From an uncultured Gammaproteobacteria bacterium (GTDB lineage Bacteria; Patescibacteriota; Microgenomatia; Daviesbacterales; UBA10151), in assembly GCA_964392925.1 (NCBI GenBank), contig CAYMRP010000001.1, forward strand, positions 165,585 to 229,584: a stretch of 64,000 bases of DNA, given 5' to 3'. The notes beneath the pieces are model-generated. The model saw only the letters and a program-made list of their open reading frames with translations. It made no database searches and had not been told where the DNA came from. The translations under genes were made by a program, and so were the position numbers. Shown here piece by piece: positions 3,190 through 55,339 of this stretch (positions are counted from its first letter, which is position 1; the number at the start of each line of letters is the position of its first letter).

Positions 3190-4104
3190 ATGTATATTAC
3201 ACCTATGGCTGACAGAAAAACATTCCATCCTGAATTATATAGAGACGCTGCTATCCCTTTGTGGGAGAGGTCCAGAATTATAAAAGATCATATAGAGAAA
3301 TCCCTAATAACAGAGTCGAGTGAAAGATCTCTCCTTATGGGTTTTTCAGATCTTAGATTTACCTGGGGTCGTTATAACCGTAGCCAGGAGCGGGAGTTCG
3401 AGCTTCTCGAATGGGAAAGGCAAAGACAAGCAGTACTCATTGCAGGTATAGCCTCCGGTTTAGGAATTAAAGAGCAGGATTGCTTCGATTTACTTCCGGA
3501 CAAATTTCCTGAGCGGTTAGAATCTTATAATAGATTAGGACTGGACACCCCTCTACTCGTTCCCAGGTTTACGAGAGTATCATGGGCAAGCGCTGTTCAT
3601 GCAGCAAGCGAGACAACTTTTTATCCTGAGGCGGTAACATTAGATTATGATCTAGATCCTTCTAGGGTTGGGGAATGGCAGGATCCGAGAGGTGTTAAGA
3701 TCCCCCAGCAACCTTTCGCGACATGGATAAAGATCCCTCCTGTTGTTCAGTATGATATTTATCCTGATAAAGACTCTCTCCAGCGAATTCGCAATCCGGA
3801 AATAGACGAAGTTGCCGAAGCTCCGGCAATTGCAAGAGTTATATTAGATCCCGATGCTAGAGGTGCAACTCACTGGGATGGACTAGCCTTGGGCTCTTTG
3901 AGGAGGGAATCAGCCCCCATAAGATTCACAGCAATGAATCTTCATGATCTAATAGGGTCGCGAATAGGAGAATATGGTGTTTTATCCTTACGTAAACCCC
4001 TCTCGGATGGAGGACCTTCCTGGCTAAGCAGGACACACATAGATGATGATCCAGAACAAAGAACGCCGGTTATCTGTAGCAGAGAAGTAACTACGAGACA
4101 ATAA
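3190..4104 (+). CDS. hypothetical protein, G+C-richer orphan (likely real start at 3205 MADRK...)
   Basis: Long ORF with visibly higher G+C than neighbours; TTGACT-16-TATATT promoter-like element just upstream; stop codon fused to a 21-bp copy of the tRNA-Asp 3' end. Confidence 0.5.
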   Translation: MYITPMADRKTFHPELYRDAAIPLWERSRIIKDHIEKSLITESSERSLLMGFSDLRFTWGRYNRSQEREFELLEWERQRQAVLIAGIASGLGIKEQDCFDLLPDKFPERLESYNRLGLDTPLLVPRFTRVSWASAVHAASETTFYPEAVTLDYDLDPSRVGEWQDPRGVKIPQQPFATWIKIPPVVQYDIYPDKDSLQRIRNPEIDEVAEAPAIARVILDPDARGATHWDGLALGSLRRESAPIRFTAMNLHDLIGSRIGEYGVLSLRKPLSDGGPSWLSRTHIDDDPEQRTPVICSREVTTRQ

Positions 4105-5267: not shown

Positions 5268-7013
5268 ATGAAAGGCACATCTAACTCTCATATTTCTGAT
5301 CTTTTAAGAAATGTTGCCGCTTCAAAAACCCTTTCTAAAGATAATTTTTTTGAAATTAGAGCCTATACTAGTGCTGCAGATGCCATTGAACACTTAACTG
5401 CTGAAGTAAAAGATCTATGGCAGGACGGCAGACTAAGCGATATACCTGGTGTTGGCAAAAGTATTCAGGGCCATCTTGACGAATTTTTTAAAACCGGTAA
5501 AGTTGAAAACTTCGAAACTATTTTAAAAAGACATCCTGAAGTCATTTATGATCTGATAAAAATTCCAGGGATTGGTCCGGCCACTGCTCTTGATTTAGCC
5601 AAAAGAGGAGTTGATAGTCTCAAAGACCTAGAGAAAAAAATCAAAGACGGCAGTTTAGTGAAAGAGGGTTTAGGTCAAAAAACTGTTGATAAAATAAGCC
5701 GGGGATTAACTGAAGTTACCGGCCGCGAAAAACGCATGCTTCTGCCTTACGCTTTAGCTCAAGCTGAAAAAATTCTGGAATTTATTAAACAAGATAAAAA
5801 TGTTGTTCATGCTGATCCTTTAGGCAGCTTAAGAAGACAGGTCGCTACCATTGGTGACTTAGATTTCGCAGCTTCCTCAAAAGATCCAAAAGCTACAATC
5901 GAGCGATTCATCAACATGCCGGGAGTAGTAGAGGTTCAGGGGCAAGGTCAAAACAAGGCTATTGTTGTTTTACATTCCGGCATTCATGTTGATCTTCTAG
6001 TCGGAGCACCTGAAACATACGGCGCACTATTACAACACTTCACCGGCTCCAAACATCACAACGTTCATTTAAGAACTTTAGCTCAGGATAAAGGTCTTTC
6101 ATTAAGCGAACATGGAGTTAAAAATTTAAAAACTGGAGAGTTAATTAACTGTCAAACCGAAGATGATCTTTATAAAATGCTCGATATGCAAACTCCTCCT
6201 CCGGAGTTGCGCGAAGATGCGGGTGAAATCGAAGCTGCTATTAAACACACGTTACCAGAATTAGTTAAATTGTCCGACATCAAAGGCGATTTTCATCTTC
6301 ATTCCAATTTTCCAATTGATTCATCCCACGATTACGGAACCGGAAGTCTGGAAGAAATAATTGAAGCCGCAATTAAACTCGGATATAAATATGTCGGTCT
6401 CTCAGATCACTCACCCGGAGTCGGAACTCACACTAAAGAAGAAATTATTAAATTAGTAGAAAAGAGGACAAAATTTATTCATCAATTACAGTTGAAGTAT
6501 AAAAGTATTCGAGTACTAAATGGCCTCGAAATTGATATACTTGCCGACGGATCTTTAGCTGTACCCGAAGAAGGTTTAAAAATGCTGGACTATTCCGTAG
6601 TCGGAATCCACACTGGCCATAGGACTAATAGGGAATCGATAACTAAAAGAATTCTAGCCGCTTTAGAATCCCCATACTCTTCAATTCTCGCCCATCCTAC
6701 TGGCCGGCTCTTAAACGAAAGAGATTCTTATGATGCTGATTGGGAAGAGATCTTTAAAGTGGCCAGCAAAAACAACAAAGCCATGGAAATAAATTCTTTC
6801 CCTAACAGACTCGACCTAAGAGATGATCTAATCCGTCTGGCTCTAAAATACGGAGTTAAATTTAGTATCGATACCGATTCCCACAAAATAGATCAAATGA
6901 CTAATATGCCTTTTGGTGTTTCTGTTGCCCGGCGCGGTTGGGCTTCAAAAAAAGACATTATAAATACCTGGGACTGGAAAGATTTGGCCAAATGGTTTAA
7001 AATGGATAAGTAA
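5268..7013 (+). CDS. polX: DNA polymerase X family protein with C-terminal PHP domain (PolX)
   Basis: HhH motifs ([21 protein letters not shown]), pol-beta nucleotidyltransferase GDLDF, PHP domain [14 protein letters not shown]...; annotated 5205 start overlaps upstream gene so M at 5268 is preferred. Confidence 0.75.
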
Positions 7014-14989: not shown

Positions 14990-17900
14990 ATGTCCAAATT
15001 CGTTCATCTTCATACCCATACTGAATATTCTCTTCTTGATGGACTGTCAAAAATCCCTAAGTTAGTTAAAGCTGCCAAAGATTTAGAAATGGATGCTCTC
15101 GCCATTACCGATCACGGCTCGATGTTCGGCGCAATCGAATTCTATAAAGCCTGTCAGGAATCCAATATAAAACCTATTATCGGCTGCGAGCTTTACGTCG
15201 CTCCTCGTTCCCACACCAGCAAAGAAGGCAAAGTCGATGCTGATCCTTATCATTTAACCATGCTAGCTAAAGACTACGAGGGTTATCTTAATCTAATTAA
15301 ATTAGTCTCGATTGCTAATCTTGATGGTTTCTATTACAAACCCCGTGTTGATAGGGAATTACTAAAAAAATACAGTAAAGGTTTAATTTGTTTGTCCGGC
15401 TGTCCCGGAGGGGAGTTTATTAGAAACCTAAAAACCGGGGACTTTAGCAAAGGCGAGCAAGTGGCCAAAGATTATCTGGAAATATTCGGTGAAGGCAATT
15501 ATTACTTCGAACTCCAAAATCACTTCTACAAAGATATCGTCGCCCGTGGTGGATTAGAGCAATCTGTTAAAGCAGATTTAGAAAACATGGCCCAAATTCA
15601 GGATTTAACCTGGGCCGCTTCCAAAGAAATATCCAAAAAACTTGGTATTCCGCTTGTTGCCACCAACGATCTTCACTACATCAAAAAAGAAGATGCAGAA
15701 GCCCAGGATTGCTTAGTTTGTATTCAAACTGGCAAAACAATTATGGAATTTAATCGTTTAAGAATGGTTGATACCCCAGATCTCTACTTGAAATCAGCTT
15801 CGGAAATGATCGCTTCGTTTAAAGAAATCCCTGAAGCGATTGAAGCCTCCGTTAAGATTGCTGAAAAAGTAAATATCGAAATTCCTTTAGGCATTCCGAT
15901 GTTTCCCATTTTTGAAGTCCCAGGCAAAAAAGATCCGATGGAATATTTAAAAGAGCTGACTTACGAAAGAGGCGCGACCAGAATGGAAATGACTACTGAA
16001 CGCAAAGAACGCTTAGATTATGAGCTCTCCGTTATTGAGAAAAAACAATACGGCACGTATTTTCTGGTAGTCCAGGATTTCATCAATTGGGCGCACACTC
16101 AGGGCATTATTACTAATACCAGAGGTTCAGCCGCCGGCTCGCTCGTTCTTTACGCGCTCGGCGTTACCAATATCGATTCAATTCAGTACAACATTCCTTT
16201 TGAAAGATTCTTAAATCCTATGCGCCCCAGTTTACCGGATATTGACTCAGATATGGCAGACGACCGCCGTGATGAGGTTATCCGTTATGTTGCCGAAAAA
16301 TACGGCCAGGATAAAGTCGCTCATATTGTTACTTTTGGAACTATGATGGGTCGGGCTGCAATCCGTGATATTGGCCGGGTTATGGGTGTAGCTTATGGTG
16401 AGGTAGATAGAATCGCTAAACTTGTCCCGCCGCCGCATCAAGGCTTCCATAAGCCTTTACCCGACGCTATTAAAGAAGTTCCTGAACTCGCTGAATTATA
16501 TAGAACCGATGCCCGTTATAAAAAACTGCTTGATCTAGCCTGCAAGGTTGAATCAACAGTTCGCCACGCTTCAGTCCACGCCGCCGGTATTGTTGTTTCG
16601 CCAACCCCTCTGACAGATTTTACTCCGCTCCAAAAAGAGGCTAACGGTGACAGGGTAGTGGCTCAATATGATATGTTCTCCGTTGAAGCTGCCGGCCTGG
16701 TCAAACTCGACTTCTTAGGTATTAGAAATCTTTCAATTCTAGGCCGCGCTGTCGAATTCGTTAAGAAAAACCGTAATATCGAAGTTGACTTAGACAACAT
16801 TCCTCTCGATGACAAAAAAGCCTTTGAATTATTAGCTCTCGGCGAAACCATGGGATTATTCCAACTCGAAGGCTCAGGTATGACTAAATGGCTGGTTGAT
16901 CTAAAGCCCACCACAATTTATGACATCATGGCTATGATTGCTTTATACCGTCCTGGTCCAATGGGCTCAATTCCTGATTATATTCAAAGAAAACACGATC
17001 CTTCCAAAATCCGCTATTACGATCCCCGAATGGAAGATTACATGAAGCAATCCTTAGGAATTTTGGTTTATCAGGAAGATGTTTTGCTCTCAGCTATTAA
17101 TCTTGCCGGTTACACCTGGCTAGAAGCTGATAAATTCCGCAAAGCCATGGGTAAAAAAATTCCTGCCGAAATGGCCAAACAAAAAGATCAATTCCTTAAA
17201 GGGGCAGTCGAACACGGCATGACCAAAGAAAAAGCCGATGGTCTTTGGGCCCTAATCGAACCATTCGCTGCTTACGGTTTCCCTAAAGCCCACGCCGCCT
17301 CTTACGGCATGATCTCCTACCAAACTGCCTATATGAAAGCTAATTTTCCAGTTGAATTTATGGCTGCAGTTATGACCGCTGAGTATGGTAATACTGAAAA
17401 AATTGCTCACGCTATAGAAGAATGCAAAAGAATGGGCATTGTCGTTTTACCTCCGGATATCAATTTCTCAGGAGTTGGTTTTACAATTGAGGACTTAAAT
17501 ACTTTATCTGAAGAAGAATTAAAAAGAAATATTTCCCATTCAAAATCAGAGATAGCACAGACTCAGGGCATTAGATTCGGTTTATCTGCCATTAAAAACG
17601 TTGGTTTACTGGCTATTGAATCACTTATAGCCGGCCGCGGAGATAGGCCTTATAAATCACTAGCTGATCTTTGTTCGCGAGTAGATACTCGCTTAGCTAA
17701 TCGCAAAACCATGGAGAGTCTAACTAAAGCCGGAGCTATGGATTCATTTGGTACCAGGGCTTCGTTACTCGCCGGCCTTGATGATGCGTTGGGTAAAGCT
17801 CATAAAACTGCTAAGTTAATAGCCTCCGGACAAGTCTCAATGTTTGGAGATGATGAAGAAGCCACAGTTATCTCCAGCAAACTGCCGGATTTAGTTGAAC

Positions 17901-18631
17901 TTGAGCTGGATAAACTGCTTTTATTTGAAAAAGAACTTTTAGGTTTTTATCTTCACGAGCCTCCTTACTTAGAAAAACTTAAACAAATGGAAACTGCGCT
18001 TAAAATGCGGATTAGCGAAATCAAAGATCAATCTGTCGGAGGGCGGATTACTTTTGGTGGTGTTATTACCGAAATAAAAAAAGTTTTAACTAAGAAAAAC
18101 GCCTCTGAAATGGCCTTTGTGACTATATCTGATGGAATATCCAGCATCGATACTGTAGTTTTCCCTAAAACATACACCTTGAATAAGCACATTCTCAATA
18201 AAGAGGAAGTCGTTGTTGTTGGTGGAAAGCTCGATAAAAGAGAAGATGAATTCTCAGTCCTGGTTGATACATTTGAGATTTTTAATCCGGATGAATTCTT
18301 TGTTCTTGATATTGATGATTCCGGAAACCGGCCTGGCATGATAGAAGACAGAAATAGGCAGGAATCCTATGCTCCGCTTAATGAAACTCCGTCCGTCAAC
18401 TTTGAGACGAGCCAAACCCCAGGTGTCGAGATTAAAATTCCTCAAAATGCCGGCGGCGATCTCCTTAAACAACTAAACGCCGAACTTAAAAAATACCCCG
18501 GCCAAACCTCGATCTCCTTATTATTACCCTCAAACAAACGCCTAAACCTCCCTTTCACAATAGATCCGGCCGGCGAACTCTTGAATAGCCTGGAGACTCT
18601 CCTTGGCCCAAATGCAGTTAAAATAAACTAG
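14990..18631 (+). CDS. dnaE: DNA polymerase III alpha subunit
   Basis: PHP domain HLHTHTEYSLLDG, polymerase core and OB-fold regions; 1213 aa. Confidence 0.9.
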   Translation: MSKFVHLHTHTEYSLLDGLSKIPKLVKAAKDLEMDALAITDHGSMFGAIEFYKACQESNIKPIIGCELYVAPRSHTSKEGKVDADPYHLTMLAKDYEGYLNLIKLVSIANLDGFYYKPRVDRELLKKYSKGLICLSGCPGGEFIRNLKTGDFSKGEQVAKDYLEIFGEGNYYFELQNHFYKDIVARGGLEQSVKADLENMAQIQDLTWAASKEISKKLGIPLVATNDLHYIKKEDAEAQDCLVCIQTGKTIMEFNRLRMVDTPDLYLKSASEMIASFKEIPEAIEASVKIAEKVNIEIPLGIPMFPIFEVPGKKDPMEYLKELTYERGATRMEMTTERKERLDYELSVIEKKQYGTYFLVVQDFINWAHTQGIITNTRGSAAGSLVLYALGVTNIDSIQYNIPFERFLNPMRPSLPDIDSDMADDRRDEVIRYVAEKYGQDKVAHIVTFGTMMGRAAIRDIGRVMGVAYGEVDRIAKLVPPPHQGFHKPLPDAIKEVPELAELYRTDARYKKLLDLACKVESTVRHASVHAAGIVVSPTPLTDFTPLQKEANGDRVVAQYDMFSVEAAGLVKLDFLGIRNLSILGRAVEFVKKNRNIEVDLDNIPLDDKKAFELLALGETMGLFQLEGSGMTKWLVDLKPTTIYDIMAMIALYRPGPMGSIPDYIQRKHDPSKIRYYDPRMEDYMKQSLGILVYQEDVLLSAINLAGYTWLEADKFRKAMGKKIPAEMAKQKDQFLKGAVEHGMTKEKADGLWALIEPFAAYGFPKAHAASYGMISYQTAYMKANFPVEFMAAVMTAEYGNTEKIAHAIEECKRMGIVVLPPDINFSGVGFTIEDLNTLSEEELKRNISHSKSEIAQTQGIRFGLSAIKNVGLLAIESLIAGRGDRPYKSLADLCSRVDTRLANRKTMESLTKAGAMDSFGTRASLLAGLDDALGKAHKTAKLIASGQVSMFGDDEEATVISSKLPDLVELELDKLLLFEKELLGFYLHEPPYLEKLKQMETALKMRISEIKDQSVGGRITFGGVITEIKKVLTKKNASEMAFVTISDGISSIDTVVFPKTYTLNKHILNKEEVVVVGGKLDKREDEFSVLVDTFEIFNPDEFFVLDIDDSGNRPGMIEDRNRQESYAPLNETPSVNFETSQTPGVEIKIPQNAGGDLLKQLNAELKKYPGQTSISLLLPSNKRLNLPFTIDPAGELLNSLETLLGPNAVKIN

Positions 18632-18634
18632 TAT

Positions 18635-19000
18635 TGTCATACCGGACTTGATCCGGTATCCAGAAACTTTGCTTATGTCGTATAAGACATACTATGTTTA
18701 TATTTTGGCTAGTCAAAGAAACGGAACTCTCTATATTGGAGTCACTAATGATTTAAAGCGAAGAATTTGGGAGCATAAACATGATTTGGTTAAAGGTTTC
18801 ACAAAAGAGTATGGGGTGCATATACTGGTTTATTTTGAGCAGCATGAAGACGTTGAGCAAGCAATATTAAGAGAAAAGAAAATCAAAAGGTGGAGTAGAA
18901 AATGGAAATTAGCACTTATAGAAAAAGATAATCCAGAATGGAAAGATCTTTACTCCAACCTCTTTTAACTGGATCCCGCATCAAGTGCGGGATGACAAAT
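18635..19000. mobile_element. candidate miniature mobile element: inverted hairpin repeats flanking a GIY-YIG nuclease gene
   Basis: Left hairpin tGTCATaCCggacttgatccGGtATcc (18635-18661) and right hairpin GGATcCCgcatcaagtgcGGgATGACa (18972-19000) are reverse-complement family members; element begins 3 bp after the dnaE stop. Confidence 0.5.
18675..18968 (+). CDS. small GIY-YIG nuclease family protein (UPF0213-like)
   Basis: YYVYIL...GTLYIGVTNDLKRRIWEH...EKKIKRWSRKWK GIY-YIG core; ATG at 18675 preferred because the TTG-initiated 5' extension from 18648 is translated from the hairpin. Confidence 0.75.
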   Translation: MSYKTYYVYILASQRNGTLYIGVTNDLKRRIWEHKHDLVKGFTKEYGVHILVYFEQHEDVEQAILREKKIKRWSRKWKLALIEKDNPEWKDLYSNLF

Positions 19001-19035
19001 TTGAAATGGCGATTTTGATATAGTATGATATCTTC

Positions 19036-19392
19036 ATGACTAAGCTTGGTAAAGATAGAATTTGTGAATATATGTTGCCTGCCTGGAATATTCCTTCAGG
19101 AAATGACTCTCCAGCATACGCAATGTGCGGTAGGACTCTATACAATGAGGATTGTATCAATACTGCCCTTGACGAAACAAACTGTCCTAGGGCAGCTACA
19201 AAACCAAAGGGTCTTACTTACGATGGGTTTGAAGCTCGTAGGTCCCGGAGAATATTAGAGATACAGAAGGCTGCAGGTGGTCCATTCTTATATCCCGGTC
19301 TACCTACTAGAGGAGAAGCTGAAGCAAAACTTTCTGAAATTCACCAACGTTTCGAAAATGCATCTACGACTAATAAGAGTCTTGGTGAGTAG
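19036..19392 (+). CDS. hypothetical protein (orphan, Cys-containing)
   Basis: 118-aa ORF preceded by TTGAAA-17-TATGAT promoter-like element; no recognisable domain. Confidence 0.35.
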   Translation: MTKLGKDRICEYMLPAWNIPSGNDSPAYAMCGRTLYNEDCINTALDETNCPRAATKPKGLTYDGFEARRSRRILEIQKAAGGPFLYPGLPTRGEAEAKLSEIHQRFENASTTNKSLGE

Positions 19393-19433
19393 CTGTTGTA
19401 TTTACGCTCAATTTACTGTAAAATTCCAAAAGT

Positions 19434-19772
19434 ATGTTATCAATGCAATTCAAAGACACAAAAATAACTATCGGTGACACGATTAAAGTTAAATATAATA
19501 TAGTTGAAGGTGGTAAAACCCGTGTTCAGGCATTCGAAGGAATCCTGATTTCTGCGCAAGGTAAAACCGAAGATGATAAAACTTTCACAGTCCGTAAAAT
19601 CGGGGACAGGGGAGTTGGAGTCGAAAGAATCTGGCCTCTAACTGCTAACACTTTAGTTGATATTGAAGTTGTTAAAAATTCCAAAAAAGGTAAAAACGGT
19701 AAAGTCGGAGTCCGACGCGCTAAACTTTACTACCTCCGCGACGTTAAAGGTCGAATGGCCACCCGTGTTTAG
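19434..19772 (+). CDS. rplS: 50S ribosomal protein L19
   Basis: Conserved L19 core (KTRVQAFEGILISAQG...FTVRKIGDRGVGVERIWPL). Confidence 0.9.
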   Translation: MLSMQFKDTKITIGDTIKVKYNIVEGGKTRVQAFEGILISAQGKTEDDKTFTVRKIGDRGVGVERIWPLTANTLVDIEVVKNSKKGKNGKVGVRRAKLYYLRDVKGRMATRV

Positions 19773-20470: not shown

Positions 20471-20569
20471 TGTCATCGTCGCAAATGCGGGAAAGTATCA
20501 TTCCAGCGAAGGCTGGAAGATTTTTAATTGGATCCCTGCCTGCGAAGGGATGACGATTGAGGATGACAA
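20471..20569. repeat. cluster of hairpin-repeat family members: degenerate unit 20471-20495, tATCATTCCAGCgaaGGCTGGAAga 20496-20520, GGATCCCTgcctgcgaAGGGATGACg 20530-20555, half-site gaggatgacaag 20558-20569
   Basis: Same GGATyCC...GGrATGAC-flanked hairpins as around the GIY-YIG gene, here with no gene between the inverted units. Confidence 0.65.
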
Positions 20570-55224: not shown

Positions 55225-55339
55225 TGTCATTCCAGCGAAGGCTGGAATCCAATTTTCAATGATTCTTTGGAATTCAGATTATCCGCATAAAACCATTTCG
55301 CTCGTTTCTAAATGGATCCCTGCCTTCGCAGGGATGACG
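55225..55339. repeat. inverted pair of hairpin-family repeats (tGTCATTCCAGCgaaGGCTGGAATcc 55225-55250; GGATCCCTGCcttcGCAGGGATGACg 55314-55339) with 63-bp spacer and no gene between
   Basis: Same family as 18635-19000 and 20471-20569; the second unit is translated as IPAFAGMTA in the annotated N-terminal extension of ORF 55259. Confidence 0.7.

Follow-up and report, generated by a model that had tools for sequence, protein, structure and literature searches.

A GIY-YIG nuclease gene between outward-facing hairpins downstream of dnaE: a probable Ssn-SRM module and its relatives in other genomes

What is a small GIY-YIG nuclease gene, bracketed by inverted hairpins, doing three nucleotides downstream of dnaE? 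The question arises in a 64-kb stretch of DNA from an uncultured bacterium (contig CAYMRP010000001.1, positions 165,585 to 229,584; hereafter the window, meaning this whole stretch). A sequence-only reading of the window had proposed an autonomous mobile element, equipped with the nuclease and accompanied by empty derivatives. We conclude that the unit adjacent to dnaE is very probably an Ssn-SRM module, in which the hairpins flanking an Ssn-family nuclease gene would be the cognate sites of that nuclease. The Ssn/SRM system is already described (Chenal 2025, Nat Commun 16:2388; PMC11893778), and this locus is a further example of it; the collection of papers searched contained no later one on the system. 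What is new here is that the members come from probable Candidate Phyla Radiation (CPR) bacteria, that the unit is found in three contexts with exact ends, and that sister genomes show reciprocal presence and absence of it.

The anatomy of the unit is sharply defined. The dnaE gene (14990-18631) carries five Pfam domains of the Pol III alpha subunit and ends in a TAG codon at 18629-18631. The TGTCAT that heads the left hairpin starts at 18635, 3 nt past that stop. This left SRM hairpin is of the type we call type I and occupies 18634-18663 on the plus strand (TTGTCATACCGGACTTGATCCGGTATCCAG, parsed as TTGTCAT-ACCGGA-CTTGA-TCCGGT-ATCCAG). Its head is read on the plus strand and faces outward. 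The ssn gene follows at 18675-18968, also on the plus strand, with an ATG at 18675 and a TAA at 18966-18968, and encodes a single-domain GIY-YIG nuclease of 97 aa; it is the only ssn gene in the window. The right SRM hairpin (18969-18998, minus strand, CTGGATCCCGCATCAAGTGCGGGATGACAA) adjoins the TAA directly, reads TTGTCAT-CCCGCA-CTTGA-TGCGGG-ATCCAG on its own strand and also has its head facing outward. A repeat search returned these two arms as the longest inverted repeat of the region, 30 nt at 87% complementarity, and the full 30-mer arm had no chance match in 100 shuffles. The arms differ at four positions, which amount to two compensated stem pairs (ACCGGA/TCCGGT against CCCGCA/TGCGGG). 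As single-stranded DNA (ssDNA), both fold into hairpins of 8 bp closed by a 5-nt loop, at -7.3 and -9.0 kcal/mol (z -3.6 and -4.0). The general plan of an arm is a YGTCAT head, an 8-bp stem beginning with AT, a loop of 4-5 nt and a CCAG tail. The bracketing of a GIY-YIG gene by inverted hairpins just past the dnaE stop, as first read, is thus confirmed by the sequence, the repeat search and the protein domain match. The same is true of the TTG-initiated 5' extension of the open reading frame (ORF), which starts at 18648: its MIRYPETLL is the hairpin read as codons, and the homologues begin at the ATG (alignment A1). A search against Rfam with gathering thresholds yielded three tRNAs only and no match at the hairpins. 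A promoter-like site, TTGAAA-17-TATGAT at 19001-19029, lies directly past the right hairpin.

The protein belongs with Ssn. It matches PF01541 (GIY-YIG; E 1.7e-16, residues 6-78) and has no second domain. For comparison, we used the ssnA-orthologous ORF of N. gonorrhoeae (L117, NZ_CP119142.1), standing in for the SsnA of N. meningitidis. Against it, the window protein shows 56% identity and 79% positives over 90 residues with no gaps, at a BLASTP E of 2e-38; tblastn against the same ORF gave E 2e-27. Chenal 2025 accepted SsnA homologues at E < 1e-10 (PMC11893778), and the window protein passes that threshold as judged against the gonococcal ORF. That ORF is 94 codons long; its residues 6 and 17 are Tyr and its residue 64 is Glu, and copies of the Neisseria hairpin sequence, NTS, surround it. 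The corresponding residues of the window protein are Y9, Y20 and E67, equivalent to the Y6, Y17 and E64 that were mutated in Neisseria SsnA (PMC11893778), and every invariant residue of alignment A1 is present. In the gonococcal record (L117 1490-1773), the sole nearby ATG is out of frame with the remainder of ssnA, so a frameshift near codon 3-4 seems likely in this strain. The entry, although listed among plasmids, is a chromosome of 2.17 Mb, and its ssnA region is unannotated.

Homologues are abundant and conserved to an unusual degree, with 7994 of 8000 scored candidates passing E 1e-5. Members at 60-72% identity come from CPR phyla, Proteobacteria, Planctomycetota, Cyanobacteria, Chloroflexota, Nitrospirota, Omnitrophota and others. 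The host of the window is probably a CPR bacterium, to go by named relatives. For L106, a contig with a related module, the encoded L20 shares 90% identity with a protein named Candidatus Daviesbacteria, so at least that host is a CPR bacterium. Profile searches of the window protein were otherwise thin: NCBIfam gave nothing above cut-off (TIGR01453 at 24.5 against 56 bits), the HUH transposase profile Y1_Tnp had no match, and PADLOC and PHROGs gave weak homing-endonuclease matches only. The protein was first described as UPF0213-like. The superfamily in that description is right, and the family is a different one by our assignment. The solved UPF0213 chains (BH0048, PDB 1zg2; EF2693, PDB 1ywl; the YhbQ/YazA type) are likewise small stand-alone GIY-YIG domains, but they are only weakly similar to the window protein, at E 6e-5 and 9e-4, and they are without the C-terminal WKxxLIExxNPxWxDLY segment conserved in Ssn. 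With similarity this marginal, UPF0213 is a loose label.

The association of gene and hairpins is not confined to this locus. We applied a strict hairpin scanner to the flanks of 80 loci of ssn homologues, taken from reference genomes of many phyla. Outward-facing hairpins were present on both sides of the gene in 51 of the 80 and at least one hairpin in 69; in 44, the nearest hairpins were arranged heads-out. By comparison, Chenal 2025 reported at least one SRM near 71% of homologues and SRMs on both sides of 42% (PMC11893778). The typical upstream hairpin has the form (T/C)GTCAT-stem-loop-stem-ATCCAG and lies 1-30 nt ahead of the start codon, with its reverse complement downstream. A census of 187 distinct hairpins contained 45 stem variants, with little variation in the CC/GG, in the AT pairs that close the stem or in the CCA(G) tail; the census was preselected for a GTCAT head and for stem pairing, so the invariance of GTCAT in it is imposed. 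Long loop insertions were seen in loci of other phyla (L034, L037, L041, L045 and L058). In 109 flanks, the first 10 nt beyond the head are rich in pyrimidines and poor in G, and the head is often 0-6 nt from the stop codon of the neighboring gene (window 18635; L121 2968; L106 2823; L097 3236). These two properties of the outer flank may reflect an insertion preference or a constraint on the cleavage site.

Within the window, a structural scan (head GTCWY, stem of at least 7 pairs, C-Y tail) found six hairpins, as compared with 0.78 on average, and never more than 3, in dinucleotide shuffles. They are confined to three intergenic regions, namely the dnaE-adjacent module and two places where a pair of hairpins has no gene between its members, which we call sites A and B. 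The sequence-only reading had noticed these two gene-less occurrences, and both are there, although the loose pattern it gave is not significant by itself (2 matches against 0.78 expected). It had also left room for the hairpins being a general family of repetitive extragenic palindromes (REPs). Put as an alternative, this would mean that generic intergenic REP or terminator hairpins lie around ssn by coincidence. In other organisms, the picture that would refute a mobile element is partly seen, for the family reaches hundreds of copies in Neisseria, Wolbachia and Rickettsia (PMC3733652, PMC11893778), and the hairpins tend to stand just past stop codons. Nevertheless, the link to the gene holds, since the flanking arrangement recurs in 51 to 69 of the 80 loci across phyla, only three intergenic regions of the window have hairpins at all, and recognition of the hairpin by the enzyme has been published (PMC11893778). 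A terminator scan of 18300-19500 found no terminator-like site, there being no T-run, and so the hairpins are not intrinsic terminators. Coincidence is a very improbable explanation, already contradicted by the cross-phylum association.

What the enzyme would do at these hairpins can be predicted from its characterized relatives. The hairpin was defined as the NTS of Neisseria (CGTCATTCCCGCGMAVGCGGGAATCYRG), generalized as the SRM, and tied to ssnA across bacteria (PMC11893778). SsnA is a 94-aa single-domain GIY-YIG protein (cd10448); the purified enzyme binds and cuts ssDNA only, and only the strand carrying the motif in forward orientation, a few nucleotides upstream of the motif (PMC11893778). 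Three further Ssn homologues act in the same way, each with its own specificity, which makes four in total, three from Neisseria and one from Wolbachia (PMC11893778). By extension, the window enzyme would bind its hairpin in ssDNA only, on the strand reading YGTCAT-stem-loop-stem-CCAG, and would nick it a few nucleotides 5' of the head. Using an offset of about 3 nt, derived from the oligonucleotide lengths in PMC11893778, the predicted cut on the plus strand falls at about 18631/18632, directly after the dnaE stop, and that on the minus strand about 3 nt beyond 18998. Because the heads point outward, the cuts are expected just outside the unit. In evolution, the gene and its two hairpins behave as one unit of 363 bp, inherited, lost and relocated together. 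In N. meningitidis, SsnA reduces transformation by SRM-containing DNA (PMC11893778), and by analogy, the most likely cellular role here would be the processing or restriction of SRM-bearing ssDNA, for example incoming DNA.

Several points weigh against identifying the unit as a working Ssn-SRM module. The right arm fully fits the published SRM pattern HGTCWYN(0-2)YYVSBRHN(0-5)WNVSBRGN(0-2)RNCYNB, but a single stem base of the left arm departs from it. When the stem sequence was changed with the structure kept, the activity of Neisseria SsnA was abolished (PMC11893778); given this dependence, cognate specificity for the divergent stems of the window is an assumption. Neisseria provides the only demonstrated precedent for the control of SRM-bearing ssDNA. 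Finally, the gene-less pairs at sites A and B differ in subtype from the resident hairpins, having a 4-nt loop and TCCAGC/CCCTGC stems, so the resident enzyme may not act on them.

Whether gene and hairpins really form one discrete unit can be asked of other genomes, and the answer is that they do. The type I unit of 363 bp (18635-18997) occurs in three genomic contexts at 82-85% nucleotide identity. Besides the one next to dnaE, there is a copy in L005, with a TIG-domain gene on one side and a PMT_2 gene on the other, and another between rplT and pheS, on the strand opposite to the operon (L106-L109). The copies keep the hairpin heterodimer, ACCGGA on the left and CCCGCA on the right, and the left arm of the window is identical to those of L005 and L106. 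Homology ends exactly at TGTCAT and at ATGACA. A second type, type II, is found with its gene in two contexts at 90.5% identity, one between rnhB and yraN in a sister genome (L118) and the other on a further contig of the same metagenome, where it is flanked by dsbA and a phosphatase gene. Across both types, the unit ends in YGTCAT and ATGACR.

At the dnaE/rplS position, the module is also inherited vertically. Three relatives with dnaE at about 75% nucleotide identity (L097, L105 and L110) have it at the same place. In L097, a 21-nt deletion (3266-3290) removes the start codon and first residues of ssn while both hairpins are intact, and this ssn is probably a decaying gene. In L105 (2428-2490) and L110 (2418-2536), two left hairpins stand in tandem in the same orientation ahead of ssn, the second of those in L110 having a 57-nt insertion in its loop. 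In the distant relatives L098 and L099, dnaE adjoins rplS across a spacer of 45-65 nt with no hairpin.

The sister genome (L118/L119), whose dnaE is 89.8% identical to that of the window in nucleotides, has no module between dnaE and rplS. In its place is a reverse-oriented ORF of 281 aa with no Pfam match. The region of this ORF replaces the last 37 nt of the window's dnaE along with an ORFan at 19036-19392; homology breaks 37 nt before the dnaE stop, and the 281-aa ORF overlaps a different dnaE 3' end. The dnaE/rplS slot is therefore a variable cassette site (window 18594-19395 against L118 3794-4717), and L096, like L118, holds a cassette different from that of the window. The right border of all the variants is just before TTGTATTTAAGCTC, upstream of rplS. 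The ORFan in the window's cassette, which adjoins the module and encodes 118 aa, matched only itself in a search of 5.8 billion proteins and had no match in Pfam, NCBIfam, PADLOC or PHROG; L097, L105, L110 and L118 do not have it, their corresponding interval being occupied by other DNA or missing. A metagenome scan that used this ORF to seek an empty site found nothing. A second slot with variable cassettes, this one within a conserved operon, is the interval between rplT and pheS (L106 2400-2900 against L111, L112 and L116). It holds either the ssn module, on the opposite strand, or unrelated ORFans on the operon strand, which in the Daviesbacteria-like relatives are of 77, 140 or 152 aa and without hairpins.

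The sister genome has its own module elsewhere, and this is where the reciprocity lies. Between rnhB and yraN, L118 carries an intact type II module composed of CGTCATTCCAGCGAAGGCTGGAATCCA, ssn and GGATCCCTGCCTGCGCAGGGATGACA. Its ssn product (P0039) has 94 aa and is 76% identical to the window protein. In the window, the same position, between rnhB and a yraN-family gene, is site A. The left SRM of site A (20497-20519, plus strand, type II) is decayed, with ATCAT in place of a CGTCAT head and with the tail lost, and is orthologous to the left SRM of L118. The right SRM (20530-20555, minus strand, type II, GGATCCCTGCCTGCGAAGGGATGACG) is preceded by a trailer, ATTTTTAATT, as in L118. Site A and the L118 module correspond base for base on both sides, with a single 308-nt gap spanning the ssn ORF (alignment A3). 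Because L118 has an intact ssn module in exactly this place, we read the site A pair as an L118-type module without its gene. An additional TGTCAT at 20471-20476, 2 nt past the rnhB stop, and an additional ATGACA at 20563-20568, just ahead of the yraN start, bracket the site A pair and are mutually paired in the ssDNA fold; they may be what is left of an outer pair of greater age, or of hairpins in tandem such as those in L105 and L110. In L118, a 26-nt unit (TTTATAAGCAAAGCTTTCAAACTATG) is repeated 5.5 times at 5823-5964, from within the end of rnhB to the head of the left hairpin, and is absent from the window.

The third state at this site is found in L097, which has one perfect double-headed palindrome, TGTCATCCCAGCGAAGGCTGGGATGACA, between rnhB and yraN. 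Since the hairpins are palindromic, the two arms share direct repeats, and deletion of the gene between them would be possible; the L097 palindrome would be the product expected from recombination of the arms through those repeats. The series of full module, gene-less pair and single double-headed hairpin is consistent with gene deletion between the arms.

The direction of change at site A is not polarized with certainty, and the series could be run backwards. In such homing-like spread, Ssn would nick SRM pairs elsewhere or in incoming DNA, and repair with a gene-bearing copy as template would fill an empty pair, so that the empty pairs would be landing pads and not relics. It speaks for this that empty pairs and full modules share the hairpin heterodimer along with a short leader (ATCCAATT...) and trailer (...ATTTTTAATTGGATCC). 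Other GIY-YIG enzymes are homing endonucleases, and the weak profile matches of the window protein are to such enzymes. However, the degenerate left hairpin of site A, with its ATCAT head and missing tail, resembles decay after loss, and L097 has a collapsed single hairpin at this very site. The enzyme is moreover specific for ssDNA, and the recognized flanks offer only about 28 nt of homology. We regard filling by homing as quite improbable and return to gene loss from an Ssn-SRM module for site A.

Site B has the two hairpins of the L118 type II module. Its left SRM (55225-55251, plus strand, type II, TGTCATTCCAGCGAAGGCTGGAATCCA) is identical to the left SRM of L118 at 29 of 29 positions, and its right SRM (55314-55339, minus strand, type II, GGATCCCTGCCTTCGCAGGGATGACG) has 91% identity to the matching hairpin of that module. 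The spacer between them, 62 nt, is unrelated to ssn. The head of the right hairpin contains an ATG (55334-55336, GGGATGACG) in the reading frame of the transglutaminase-like gene that follows, and the N-terminus read from this ATG, MTATILVLLFIFSKTVSAAG, resembles a signal peptide; the ORF start is listed at 55259, in the spacer between the hairpins. The right hairpin may thus supply the start codon of the transglutaminase-like gene.

Is the module, then, mobile, and by its own nuclease? Evolutionary mobility of the module is supported, and its footprint is that of an element either selfish or domesticated. The stronger proposal is that SRM-ssn-SRM transposes by means of the Ssn nuclease, and that gene-less pairs are non-autonomous derivatives comparable to miniature inverted-repeat transposable elements or to REPINs, by analogy with the REP-associated tyrosine transposases (RAYTs) and the REPINs. 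The unit occurs in several contexts with sharp TGTCAT/ATGACA ends, it sits within conserved gene rows (dnaE-rplS, and rplT-pheS on the opposite strand), the protein keeps 60-72% identity across unrelated phyla, and sister genomes differ reciprocally in its presence. Site B shares the SRM heterodimer of the type II modules without having the gene. The Ssn authors raised the same hypothesis, observing that NTS-ssnA-NTS resembles an insertion sequence and proposing a domesticated mobile element (PMC11893778), and the REPs tagged with CGTC have no known transposase (PMC3733652).

The evidence on the other side is of several kinds. The target-site duplications suggested by the sequence-only reading were looked for in 55 modules and found in none. 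No clean empty site was found, either at dnaE/rplS by a scan with the dnaE C-terminus or at rplT/pheS through L20 homologues; the alternative alleles hold unrelated ORFs. Polymorphism for presence, also anticipated, is seen between site A and the L118 module, but within one population the module is identical in four contigs. The long vertical retention at dnaE/rplS and the gene decay in L097 count against it too, and the site A pair is most simply explained as a module minus its gene. One predicted nick is on the plus strand and the other on the minus strand, each marking the 5' boundary of the unit on its strand, a geometry unlike that of IS200/IS605. No phage copy of ssn was found in 50,697 phage records.

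The chemistry also has to be considered. GIY-YIG enzymes hydrolyze DNA, and strand transfer or DNA joining is not known for any of them. For a relocation to be completed, a GIY-YIG hydrolase would have to rely on replication or repair by the host. With no target duplication and no clean empty site, Ssn-catalyzed transposition is left as a candidate, and a rather doubtful one. We hold it equally tentative that the 363-bp unit and the gene-less pairs are copied or relocated by a hairpin-guided GIY-YIG ssDNA nickase in place of an HUH transposase. What stands of the autonomous element with empty derivatives is accordingly the exact-ended units in several contexts, the gain or loss between sisters and the one gene-less pair with a full counterpart in the sister genome; what is not supported is the nuclease as mobilizer and the empty pairs as transposed copies and not relics.

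Returning to the Ssn-SRM module as the preferred identification, its resemblance to known systems is closest for the Neisseria one. The two share a single-domain GIY-YIG protein of about 94-97 aa, the catalytic positions, hairpins on both sides of the gene and orphan copies elsewhere. They differ in that Neisseria has hundreds of hairpins and the present window six in 64 kb of a small low-GC, probable CPR-type genome. Neisseria ssnA lies between hairpin pairs, whereas the window ssn lies inside one heads-out pair. The stems and loop of the window are also divergent (ACCGGA/CCCGCA, loop CTTGA), and activity here is predicted from sequence.

The hairpins themselves conform to the CGTC-tagged REPs of Di Nocera 2013. 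Those have a CGTC head, TGTC in many, stems of 8-9 bp nearly always starting with AT, loops of 4-5 nt and a CCA tail; they are mostly inverted dimers, often heterodimers, and include dRS3 of Neisseria and RPE-4/RPE-6 of Rickettsia (PMC3733652). All five well-formed hairpins of the window satisfy this anatomy in head, stem, loop, tail and inverted dimers, heterodimers among them, and the anatomy agrees with the NTS consensus as well. The 2013 study found no associated gene, the REPs being said to "apparently lack a dedicated transposase", whereas here and in Chenal 2025 the gene is ssn; the CPR phyla are outside the five phyla it listed (PMC3733652).

RAYT/REPIN and IS200/IS605 systems are alike in having a small gene between inverted REP hairpins, dispersed gene-less REP doublets and recognition of hairpins in ssDNA. 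The enzyme there is an HUH tyrosine transposase, in contrast to the GIY-YIG hydrolase here, for which no covalent intermediate is expected; in comparison with IS200/IS605, the predicted cuts of the module are on opposite strands and outside the unit. The GIY-YIG homing endonucleases of the I-TevI type share the catalytic core and a selfish-element flavor, but have separate DNA-binding domains and cut double-stranded DNA at intron-less or gene-less alleles. Lastly, Saunders and Snyder reportedly described "minimal mobile elements" of Neisseria as variable cassettes between conserved genes, often with dRS3. The fixed slots at dnaE/rplS and rplT/pheS, which in close relatives hold the ssn module, ORFans or the 281-aa ORF, are similar.

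Before the Ssn enzymes, no site-specific nuclease was known that acts on ssDNA only, and enzyme/hairpin pairs are possible tools. This locus and its relatives, from probable CPR bacteria, add two such pairs that have diverged, type I (5-nt loops) and type II (4-nt loops). The comparisons bear on the origin and spread of the CGTC-type REPs, a question raised in 2013 and again in 2025, and the filled, emptied and collapsed alleles supply natural material for testing Ssn as a mobilizing enzyme. If the doubtful proposal of nuclease-driven relocation were true, Ssn would be the missing mobilizing enzyme of the CGTC-tagged REP superfamily, and the reciprocal presence and absence in the sister genomes would record recent events of its activity.

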